A stretch of 64,000 nt of DNA from Escherichia phage vB_EcoM_OE5505. Below, piece after piece: positions 6,532 through 8,018 of this stretch. Under the pieces are notes generated by a model. The model did no database searches and was not told where the DNA came from. It saw only the letters and a program-made list of their open reading frames with translations. Location of the stretch: the sequence record NC_054926.1. The stretch is one strand, 5' to 3'. The translations under genes and the position numbers were made by a program. Numbering within the stretch: the first letter of the stretch is position 1; every line of letters begins with the position of its first letter.

Positions 6532-7017
6532 TTATTTTATGTAATATTTATTTAAAAACTTTCTAGCTTGAGTATGGCTAACATTTATAGCGTTTGCATA
6601 ATTTTTAATAAAACCTCGTTCATCCATATTAAAATTTTCTAATATTTTTAATCGTCTAATTATCTCATCTTGGCTTAAGGTACTTGCATTATTTTTAGAA
6701 ATTTTTTCTAAAGACTGCACTGAGTGTTTTCGACCATTAAAATTAAAATTTTTAGGTTTTGGAGGAAATCTATCATTTAGTCTCGCATCTTTTGTATTTT
6801 GATTATTAGTTGCGCAATATATGTTATTTAATGAGTATGGTCCTTTATCACCAAAACGACACATACAGTATTCATGACCCTTTCTTCCACGCTTATCATA
6901 ATTTCCTGTTGATTTCCACCAATTTAACCACTCATCAAAAGTTAAATTCCATTCAATGTTTCTACGTATAGCAGAATTCCGCTGAGAAATATATTTTGCA
7001 TAATCTTCTTTCATCAC
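6532..7017 (-). CDS. Homing-endonuclease-like protein (degenerate HNH-like N-terminus, C-terminal HTH)
   Basis: 161 aa; Cys/His motif GHEYCMCRF...LNNIYCATNNQN; C-terminal ...NVSHTQARKFLNKYY resembles the HTH tail of the adjacent HNH ORF. Confidence 0.6.
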   Translation of the reverse strand: MMKEDYAKYISQRNSAIRRNIEWNLTFDEWLNWWKSTGNYDKRGRKGHEYCMCRFGDKGPYSLNNIYCATNNQNTKDARLNDRFPPKPKNFNFNGRKHSVQSLEKISKNNASTLSQDEIIRRLKILENFNMDERGFIKNYANAINVSHTQARKFLNKYYIK

Positions 7018-7061
7018 AAATTTCTCTACTTATTACATGCACTAAGCTAAATCAGCAAAAC

Positions 7062-7151
7062 TGGCGGAGGCGATAGGATTTGAACCTATGAGTCGCCGGA
7101 GCGACTGCCGGTTTTCAAGACCGGTGCATTAAACCACTCTGCCACGCCTCC
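7062..7151 (-). tRNA. tRNA-Ser (anticodon UGA), type II
   Basis: 90 nt, long variable arm, anticodon loop CUUGAAA, acceptor GGAGGCG/CGCCTCC, CCA encoded. Confidence 0.85.
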
Positions 7152-7153
7152 AG

Positions 7154-7227
7154 TCTCCATACAAGGATTTGAACCTTGGACCTCCTGATCCCAAATCAGG
7201 CGCTCTACCAAACTGAGCTACACGGAG
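7154..7227 (-). tRNA. tRNA-Pro (anticodon UGG), CCA not encoded
   Basis: 74 nt, anticodon loop UUUGGGA, only 2 nt from tRNA-Ser (Pro-Ser dimer as in T4). Confidence 0.8.
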
Positions 7228-7237
7228 TAAATTAAAT

Positions 7238-7311
7238 TGGAGCGGATAATGAGAATCGAACTCACATCATCAGATTGGAAGTCTGAGGTAATGCCATTAT
7301 ACGATATCCGC
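7238..7311 (-). tRNA. tRNA-Gly (anticodon UCC)
   Basis: 74 nt cloverleaf, anticodon loop CUUCCAA, acceptor GCGGATA/TATCCGC, CCA encoded. Confidence 0.85.
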
Positions 7312-7316
7312 AAATT

Positions 7317-7403
7317 TGGTGCGAGAAGTGGGACTCGAACCCACAAGGAAATCATTCCGCAGCATTTTAAGTGCTGTGCCTTTACCAATTTGACCATTCT
7401 CGC
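7317..7403 (-). tRNA. tRNA-Leu (anticodon UAA), type II
   Basis: 87 nt, long variable arm, anticodon loop CUUAAAA, acceptor GCGAGAA/TTCTCGC. Confidence 0.85.
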
Positions 7404-7409
7404 GCTATA

Positions 7410-8018
7410 TTATTTATTACGTGAAAAAGACTGTTCTATCAATTCTGGACACTTTCGTTCTATCCATTTTCTAGCTTTTTGTGGGCTTATACCTATTATT
7501 TTAGCAGCTTTACTAACCCATCCAAATTTAAAATAATCGATTTTAACTAATTCTTCGTAAATTTCATCAGTTAAAATCTTTTCATTAATATTTACCAGTA
7601 AATGATATAATTTATTATCATTAGCAATTTTAATGAATCTTTTATAGTTTCCGCCTTTACTTAAACCTAATGAAGTAATTGCAGATGATATAGTAGCCGA
7701 ATTTAATAGTGCGTTTAAAATTTCTTCATCACTAACATTATAACGCTTTCTATTATTTTTAATATTTTTACCAGCAAAAGTATCAGTTTGCGAATGGCAA
7801 TTTGGACATAATAATCTTAAATTTGATTTAAGATGATTTTTGTTATTTCCATCAATATGGTCTAATTGTAGAACAATATGCTTATTTTGCCATTTTGAAA
7901 TTTTACAAATTGCACACTCATATGGAAAAATATTTTCTTTTATTATTTTGTCTTTTAGCTTTCCTGTACTAAAATTTGGATGTTTTCCTTCAAAAATTTC
8001 AGCTAATTTAGTATCCAT
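7410..8018 (-). CDS. HNH homing endonuclease
   Basis: CAICKISKW...LDHIDGNNKNH...LLCPNCH HNH/zinc motif; C-terminal HTH; ATG at 8018 (ORF track extends to a TTG at 8042). Confidence 0.85.
   Translation of the reverse strand: MDTKLAEIFEGKHPNFSTGKLKDKIIKENIFPYECAICKISKWQNKHIVLQLDHIDGNNKNHLKSNLRLLCPNCHSQTDTFAGKNIKNNRKRYNVSDEEILNALLNSATISSAITSLGLSKGGNYKRFIKIANDNKLYHLLVNINEKILTDEIYEELVKIDYFKFGWVSKAAKIIGISPQKARKWIERKCPELIEQSFSRNK

Follow-up and report, generated by a model that had tools for sequence, protein, structure and literature searches.

Two putative homing-endonuclease genes in place of tRNA genes in the tRNA cluster of a T-even phage

Introduction

What are the two open reading frames (ORFs) that lie in the tRNA gene cluster of Escherichia phage vB_EcoM_OE5505, and how have they shaped the set of tRNAs that the phage encodes? 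The stretch of DNA analysed here, called the window, comprises 64,000 nucleotides of this genome (NC_054926.1), and the two reading frames are termed ORF1 and ORF2 (Table 1). An earlier reading of the sequence, the original prediction, had taken both for genes of the homing-endonuclease type, inserted among the tRNA genes, which might drive the preferential inheritance of this region in mixed infection and explain its remodelled tRNA content. Both are indeed real, conserved genes of the minus strand that carry the motifs quoted for them, with matches among the PHROG families and thousands of homologues. A precedent is offered by the T4 endonuclease SegB, which cleaves tRNA genes and whose homing efficiency is about 100% (PMC2330249).

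The account proposed here, which we favour with moderate confidence, is that of two independent, free-standing genes of the homing-endonuclease type, each of which has displaced one tRNA gene of the T-even cluster. The two proteins have a modular build in common. ORF2 is a canonical HNH enzyme, and ORF1 combines a DNA-binding domain of homing endonucleases with an N-terminal domain that has no catalytic His.

Replacement of tRNA genes by the two ORFs

The window comes from a Tequatrovirus; over positions 5900-8500 it matches Yersinia phage PYps5T at 100% identity, and many E. coli T-even phages at 97-99%. Nine tRNA genes were identified by ARAGORN, all of them, like every other gene around ORF1 and ORF2, on the minus strand. 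The order of transcription is the homologue of T4 tRNA.2 (8129-8416), ORF2, tRNA-Leu, tRNA-Gly, tRNA-Pro, tRNA-Ser, ORF1, tRNA-Met(CAU), tRNA-Tyr, tRNA-Asn, a spacer of 114 nucleotides, tRNA-His and tRNA-Arg. The two ORFs had been said to split the cluster; this is true of ORF1, which is internal, but not of ORF2, which sits at the 5' edge, and each of them has in addition replaced a tRNA gene. Neither tRNA-Gln nor tRNA-Thr was found by ARAGORN anywhere in the window.

The slot taken by ORF2 holds tRNA-Gln in T4, T2L and RB51, and in T4 and T2L this is the first tRNA of the cluster. When the window is aligned with T4 and T2L, homology crosses the first 7 nucleotides of tRNA-Gln, which persist as a stub directly upstream of the ORF2 start, and picks up again at tRNA-Leu; megablast homology to phages without ORF2 begins at 8025. 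ORF1 occupies the position between tRNA-Ser and tRNA-Met/Ile(CAU), which in ACG-C40, T4 and RB51 contains an intact tRNA-Thr and in the window, Lutter and T2L contains ORF1. A degenerate 5' remnant of tRNA-Thr follows the conserved GTTTT spacer behind tRNA-Ser and forms the leader, start codon and first codons of ORF1. Its first 16 nucleotides match at 15 positions, and the rest of the similarity, reaching the anticodon arm at about nucleotide 45, has a shuffle p of 0.0026. Downstream of ORF1, homology to the empty allele returns at the first base of tRNA-Met(CAU). A third gene of this cluster, RB51ORF142, has displaced tRNA-Pro in the same way, also leaving a degenerate 5' stub (p 0.019). All three replacements have cost the tRNA its 3' part and with it the T-psi-C arm, which is the conserved core of the SegB recognition sites (PMC2330249). 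Since alignments of filled and empty alleles reveal tRNA genes replaced by the two ORFs, these account for the remodelled tRNA set, as had been supposed. This one-for-one replacement of tRNA genes is new with respect to the annotations and papers checked. The same locus had also been equated with the one where T4 carries segB, which is mistaken, as T4 segB lies in another slot, between tRNA-Ile and tRNA-Arg.

All four combinations of alleles occur on near-identical flanks: T4 has tRNA-Gln and tRNA-Thr, T2L has tRNA-Gln and ORF1, ACG-C40 has ORF2 and tRNA-Thr, and Lutter and the window have ORF2 and ORF1. ORF1 was found in 25 records and ORF2 in 62, compared with 510 that contain the conserved flank, so that both are minority alleles with a patchy distribution. 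A free-standing homing gene is recognised by being present in some close relatives and absent from others at one locus with exact boundaries, a pattern that both ORFs display. Flanking single-nucleotide polymorphisms were too few in the alignments to reveal co-conversion tracts.

It could be argued that the ORFs are instead old residents of the tRNA region, and that deletions, or insertions of tRNA genes, produced the empty alleles without any mobility driven by an endonuclease. Both ORFs are vertically stable in sub-lineages, at 95-100% nucleotide identity, and movement would be deduced only from the comparison of alleles. The 5' fragments of tRNA-Gln and tRNA-Thr that persist beside the ORFs imply, on the contrary, that the tRNA genes came first, and neither the four allele combinations nor the analogous replacement of tRNA-Pro by a third endonuclease gene fits long residence, which we therefore consider extremely unlikely.

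ORF2, an HNH endonuclease gene

ORF2 starts at the ATG at 8018, and its GenBank coding sequences are 609 nucleotides long. Its full length (residues 1-202) matches phrog_14736, 'HNH endonuclease', over residues 1-202 with an E value of 5.9e-123, and a dozen other HNH PHROGs match as well. The PADLOC model HEase ('homing endonuclease') recognises it at 3.8e-19, and among the NCBIfam models it matches the HNH region of IscB and ZorE. Homologues number 5,482, many of them with the Pfam HNH domain (PF01844).

The HNH motif and the C-terminal helix-turn-helix (HTH) that the original prediction had described were both found: the pattern CxxC...DH...N...CxxCH is intact, and profile matches and the helices of an AlphaFold 2 (AF2) model agree with it. 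Among 36 aligned homologues, C35, C38, H54, G57, N66, C71, P72, N73, C74 and H75 are invariant, and the D53-H54 pair is invariant or nearly so. In the model (predicted local distance difference test, pLDDT, 89.8), residues 51-54 and 67-70 form strands and residues 72-75 a helix, with helical modules beyond. ORF2 thus presents the features of a His-Me finger, that is, a beta-hairpin plus helix, with a His ending strand 1, a structural Asn, a helix His and a CxxC...CxxC zinc site. Residues 165-192 have sub-threshold Pfam HTH matches (HTH_29, P22_Cro, HTH_17), a block 'ID..KFGWV....IGISPQK..KW' is kept there among the homologues, and AF2 places helices at 167-175 and 179-189.

With high confidence, then, ORF2 is a gene for an HNH endonuclease of the homing type. 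Profile matches, invariant residues, model and the existing GenBank label ('HNH endonuclease, similar to T5 TflIV') make it an ordinary, already annotated gene, and taken alone it is routine. Its closest known counterpart is hegA of phage T5, with 33% identity across 84% of the length of ORF2; an HNH core and a C-terminal HTH are common to the two, and just as ORF2 adjoins tRNA genes, hegA immediately follows tRNA-Ile2 in the tRNA cluster of T5. They differ in that hegA belongs to the Demerecviridae and ORF2 to the Straboviridae, and in that hegA has an extra N-terminal HTH module. F-TflIV, from the T5 tRNA region, has been grouped with the MobA-E HNH enzymes (PMC5714182).

ORF1, identity and C-terminal domain

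ORF1 most likely starts at the ATG at 7014, one codon inside the GTG at 7017 that had been listed; its GenBank coding sequences and its cluster representative, P0001, begin with MKEDY. It matches phrog_16521 (unknown function) at 2e-54 and has no match in Pfam, NCBIfam or PADLOC. It is equivalent to T2L trna.1 (AJ880101), which fills the same slot, has 96% nucleotide identity to it and was recorded in 2008 simply as an ORF without known function (PMC2330249). The T2/T2L copy (T2L locus 460-985) has suffered two 2-bp deletions and is annotated as an ORF of 133 amino acids without the N-terminal helices; it resembles a decaying copy.

A motif of the NUMOD3 type followed by an HTH is found at the C-terminus of ORF1. 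The last 65 residues are homologous to the C-terminus of RB51ORF142 (BLASTP 8e-15), a GIY-YIG endonuclease of 202 amino acids with the Pfam NUMOD3 motif, whose N-terminal 117 residues are 83% identical to those of T4 SegB, an experimentally proven nuclease. The C-terminal tails of ORF1 and ORF2 had been described as similar, but their resemblance is that of any two HTHs, and the real relative of the ORF1 tail is RB51ORF142. One tRNA cluster has thus accommodated three shuffled builds: SegB joins a GIY-YIG domain to a first DNA-binding domain, RB51ORF142 joins the same GIY-YIG domain to a second one, and ORF1 joins a His-less finger to that second domain. This exchange of modules between ORF1 and SegB-like enzymes is new relative to the annotations and papers checked.

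Neither ORF1 nor ORF2 gave a GIY-YIG match in Pfam, and neither is similar to T4 SegB. The labels 'segB' and 'segD' attached to some tblastn matches proved to sit on genes of the RB51ORF142 type. The RB51ORF142 gene itself is located at 2252-2860 of the phage RB51 locus, with counterparts in relatives, and is labelled segB in some records and segD in others. The possibility that ORF1 is a decayed copy or derivative of ORF2 was dropped, as BLASTP found nothing and the hhalign alignment was confined to 33 columns in the C-terminal HTH (23% probability).

ORF1, the N-terminal domain

The AF2 model of ORF1 (pLDDT 93) consists, in its N-terminal part, of two helices, a beta-hairpin (50-54, 66-70) and a helix at 71-80. 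When 1.84 billion cluster representatives were searched with a profile of this part, 7,245 representatives of 50%-identity clusters matched with E <= 1e-3, of which 5,249 reached E <= 1e-10. This family of more than 7,000 clusters has no Pfam model. W30, R54, D57, G59, Y61, N65 and N74 are invariant in 114 aligned members, and the motif W..W...[M]xR..D.G.Y...N, with its Arg, is present in 158 of 163 family proteins. The Cys positions vary among members, many of which have YVMAR.

In the model, R54 ends strand 1, where HNH enzymes place the general-base His, so that a catalytic His is missing; Y61 and D57 lie in a loop, at the position of the omega-loop, and N74 in the helix. The spacing R54-11-N65-9-N74 is nearly equal to H54-12-N66-9-H75 in ORF2. 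ORF1 had been described as a decayed or divergent endonuclease. Divergence agrees with the HNH-like spacing and the beta-beta-alpha model, but decay does not fit, as the residues that had looked like a partial motif are invariant in a very large family.

The best structural match is PacI (PDB 3M7K / 3LDY; His-Me finger group 20), with the proviso that Foldseek against the Protein Data Bank (PDB) gave nothing significant, and a profile search of PDB sequences returned nothing at E <= 10, PacI included. PacI also lacks the general-base His; it uses a Tyr of the omega-loop, and an Asp and an Asn hold the metal (PMC5714182, PMC4081073), residues for which ORF1 offers candidates. The placement of ORF1 in this large PacI-like family, which lacks the His and has the build of homing endonucleases, is new with regard to the annotations and papers checked.

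The domain is found with a variety of partners. NUMOD3 accompanies it in 20 of the 114 members and I-TevI_DNA-bd in 14 of them, and NUMOD1 also occurs; some metagenomic members have tandem N-terminal domains (P0016, P0022, P0066 and P0288 make up the set of unusual architectures), as in P0016, where two of them precede five NUMOD1-like repeats. From these partners and from the combination seen in RB51ORF142, it follows that the N-terminal domain of ORF1 stands at the nuclease position of a modular homing endonuclease. The architecture is that of I-TevI and I-HmuI, in which a small catalytic domain is joined to NUMOD3, NUMOD1 or HTH modules; those enzymes are intron-encoded and of the GIY-YIG or canonical HNH(N) kind, whereas ORF1 and ORF2 are free-standing and ORF1 lacks the His.

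ORF1 homologues in other phages

Full-length homologues of ORF1, at 35-58% identity, lie on the same strand between tRNA genes in other Straboviridae, of five other genera. Hosts of these tRNA-cluster homologues are Jiaodavirus KpV477, Gelderlandvirus S16, Chrysonvirus phiAS5, Biquartavirus phage 31, EcS1 and an uncultured contig of 175 kb; the homologue of phage 31 has been annotated as 'not conserved in 44RR'. Relatives that share only the N-terminal domain, with other C-termini, have a tRNA gene within 3 kb at just 1 of 56 viral loci. The association with tRNA genes therefore tracks the DNA-binding domain, which is what a modular homing endonuclease predicts.

The last 10-21 nucleotides of the endonuclease gene coincide with the 5' end of the following tRNA in KpV477, S16, phiAS5 and vB_SdyM_006, so that cleavage by RNase P would remove the stop codon of the endonuclease. 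This overlap, together with the place of the gene inside a tRNA precursor transcript, means that tRNA processing would limit expression, as has been proposed for segB (PMC2330249).

A model for the inheritance of the cluster

The proposed model is that, in mixed infection, each protein would bind the intact tRNA-gene allele of a related phage, its putative target, and cut it. Recombinational repair would then copy the endonuclease gene, together with adjacent tRNA genes, into the cut genome. The genome of the carrier would be immune because the 3' part of the displaced tRNA, T-psi-C arm included, is gone. For ORF1 the chemistry may be PacI-like: Tyr61 would serve as the base or the nucleophile, Mg2+ would be bound by Asp57 and Asn74, and Arg54 would steady the phosphate; whether ORF1 is catalytically active at all is evenly balanced. 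The SegB precedent makes preferential inheritance of the region through homing plausible (PMC2330249).

Several observations weigh against this account. The Pfam HNH model (PF01844) scores only 17.3 bits on ORF2, under its gathering cut-off of 21.4, a result that is outweighed by phrog_14736, the other HNH PHROGs, PADLOC and the presence of PF01844 on homologues. No profile similarity between the N-terminal domain of ORF1 and the HNH domain of ORF2 was detected by hhalign. The two Cys4 zinc sites of PacI, a homodimeric cutter of 8 bp, are not present in ORF1, which has separate DNA-binding modules and the invariant Arg at the His position; in view of the missing zinc site and of the lack of sequence similarity, the likeness of the modelled domain to PacI is a resemblance and not membership. 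The metagenomic protein P0066 has a full Endonuclease_7 domain beside an ORF1-type domain, and P0288 a partial one, and it follows that the ORF1-type domain need not be a nuclease. Crosses of T4 with T2L lost trna.1 from 99.6% of the progeny, swept out by SegB (PMC2330249); the T2 copy, however, is truncated and has its two deletions. A distant version of the N-terminal domain of ORF1 is apparently present in T4 Srd (locus 3040-3786, N-terminal ~85 residues), with a stronger signal in predicted structure than in sequence. Finally, the identities of the genes, their domain build, the replacement of tRNA genes and the patchy occurrence are observed, whereas cleavage, target sites and biased inheritance for ORF1 and ORF2, and any catalysis by ORF1, are steps that we infer.

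The resemblance to Srd raises the possibility that the N-terminal domain of ORF1 acts like the corresponding part of Srd, as a module for protein-protein contacts or RNA processing, for example with RNase E on the tRNA precursor, and not on DNA. Residues 8-86 of T4 Srd have the pattern R..D..GY...N....N and the preceding helix 'AKRR..F.L.F'. Foldseek against BFVD returned proteins named 'Anti-sigma factor' (Srd-type) with probability 1.0 but E values of 0.01-0.08, and 4 of the 114 family members match phrog_1400 (Srd). Srd stimulates RNase E, and ORF1 lies in a transcript that requires RNase processing. Against this, the similarity is weak (hidden Markov model score of 16 bits; hhalign E 1.4e-3 at 17% probability), ORF1 has a genuine DNA-binding domain of homing endonucleases, and it is this domain, not the N-terminal one, with which the tRNA association goes. 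Srd also has a different C-terminal part, lacks a NUMOD/HTH module of homing endonucleases and is encoded outside the tRNA cluster. A role of this kind is very unlikely for ORF1.

It is also conceivable that ORF1 is a nuclease-dead, sequence-specific DNA binder derived from a homing endonuclease, which would regulate the tRNA operon or shield the cut sites of SegB-like enzymes. The Arg at the catalytic His position could be read in this way, and His-Me fingers that have lost catalysis and kept DNA binding do exist, such as SMAD MH1 (PMC5714182). The sharing of a DNA-binding domain with the GIY-YIG endonuclease RB51ORF142 would suit a shield, and so would the separate Endonuclease_7 of P0066 and P0288. 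The genes for ORF1 and RB51ORF142 were not found together in any Tequatrovirus record listed; as about three co-occurrences would be expected by chance, this absence is weak evidence and only a hint. The invariant D57, Y61 and N74, on the other hand, look like a metal- and base-type set rather than a surface that contacts DNA, PacI, which comes nearest in structure, is active as a nuclease without the His, and the patchy, mobile distribution and varied DNA-binding partners are those of active homing endonucleases. T2L is not protected from SegB, albeit with a truncated copy of ORF1 and a SegB whose DNA-binding domain is different. All in all, a dead binder seems rather unlikely.

The reading of ORF1 as a homing-type enzyme leads to a broader proposal, made tentatively and as something a little less than an even chance: that its N-terminal domain (W..W...R..D.G.Y...N........N) may represent a new and very large class of homing or nicking enzymes, PacI-like, with Tyr and Arg in place of His, which in the Straboviridae has been shuffled with the SegB-like, tRNA-gene-specific DNA-binding module, or else, and equally new, a nuclease-dead decoy that guards tRNA genes from SegB-like enzymes.

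Features of the locus and its neighbourhood

The coordinates of the features discussed are collected in Table 1. Both ORFs lie within the precursor transcript of the tRNAs; the ORF2 stop codon is 6 nucleotides ahead of the next tRNA and that of ORF1 9 nucleotides ahead. No terminators were found, and a sigma-70 scan was uninformative, with 19 promoter-like sites against 11.5 expected. Hairpins that would mask the ribosome-binding sites of ORF1 and ORF2, as proposed for segB, did not stand out (z 0.03 and -0.97). Weak Rfam matches to sX4, Plastid-ycf2 and tRNA-Sec overlap tRNA genes and were accordingly taken as tRNA-driven.

Table 1. Features of ORF1, ORF2 and the adjoining tRNA genes (positions in the window)
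Feature	Position	Strand	Basis
ORF2, free-standing HNH endonuclease gene (202 amino acids)	7410..8018	-	PHROG, PADLOC, homologues
ORF2 HNH/zinc core, residues 35-75 (C35, C38, D53, H54, N66, C71, C74, H75)	7794..7916	-	Alignment and AF2
ORF2 C-terminal HTH, residues 165-192	7443..7526	-	Pfam (sub-threshold), homologues, AF2
tRNA-Gln stub TGGGAAT (first 7 nucleotides), directly upstream of ORF2 start	8025..8031	-	Alignment with T4 and T2L
tRNA-Ser, tRNA-Pro, tRNA-Gly and tRNA-Leu, between the two ORFs	7062..7403	-	ARAGORN and Rfam tRNA matches
Degenerate 5' remnant of tRNA-Thr (nucleotides ~1-45): ORF1 leader, start codon, first codons	7005..7056	-	Alignment and shuffle
ORF1 gene (160 amino acids; 161 if from GTG 7017)	6532..7014	-	Same gene as T2L 'trna.1'
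ORF1 N-terminal domain, residues ~2-80: two helices, then beta-beta-alpha core (residues 50-80, nucleotides 6778-6870), Arg at His position	6778..7014	-	
ORF1 C-terminal DNA-binding domain, residues 93-158: NUMOD3-like helix and three-helix HTH	6544..6741	-	
tRNA with CAU anticodon	6448..6522	-	ARAGORN; begins 9 nucleotides past ORF1 stop

The spacer between tRNA-His and tRNA-Asn (6159-6272, minus strand) has an unusually stable predicted fold of -32.7 kcal/mol (z -4.36, 0 of 200 shuffles). It has no similarity to T4 rnaC or rnaD and no Rfam match, and Lutter and T2L have neither this spacer nor tRNA-His. The spacer may function as a small stable RNA or a processing element. On the 3' side of tRNA-Arg, the window contains the 'trna.2' ORF of T2L and then homologues of rnaD and rnaC. 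This ORF (5634-5984, 116 amino acids; phrog_3355, unknown function) is just upstream of the two RNA genes, and T4 does not have it; the homologues of the T4 species 1 and species 2 RNAs (rnaC, rnaD) are at 5377-5515 and 5522-5634. At the other edge of the cluster, a subset of phages carry an extra ORF of 171 amino acids (phrog_2290, unknown function, no Pfam match) between tRNA.2 and the first tRNA or ORF2. It is present in phage a51 (locus 3262-3777) and many Tequatroviruses, and is a further insertion/deletion polymorphism at the cluster edge.

Significance

SegB and RB51ORF142 share the niche of the tRNA cluster with ORF1 and ORF2, and presumably also their life-style, and RB51ORF142 shares NUMOD3 and HTH with ORF1; they differ in their unrelated GIY-YIG catalytic domains and in the slots that they occupy. 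The T2L gene trna.1, unexplained since 2008, is now tied through ORF1 to a family with homing-endonuclease architecture and no catalytic His. If the domain of ORF1 does cleave DNA, it would constitute a new catalytic class of homing endonucleases and provide a set of compact modules for targeting DNA; failing that, it would be a widespread case of a nuclease fold recruited for binding. The possible distant link to Srd, if true, would supply that protein with a structural context.

For the T-even phages, the tRNA cluster emerges as a recurrent landing site of at least four endonuclease genes, ORF2, ORF1, RB51ORF142 and SegB, three of which (ORF2, ORF1 and RB51ORF142) each remove one tRNA gene, and the differences in tRNA content between these phages thereby acquire a direct mechanism.

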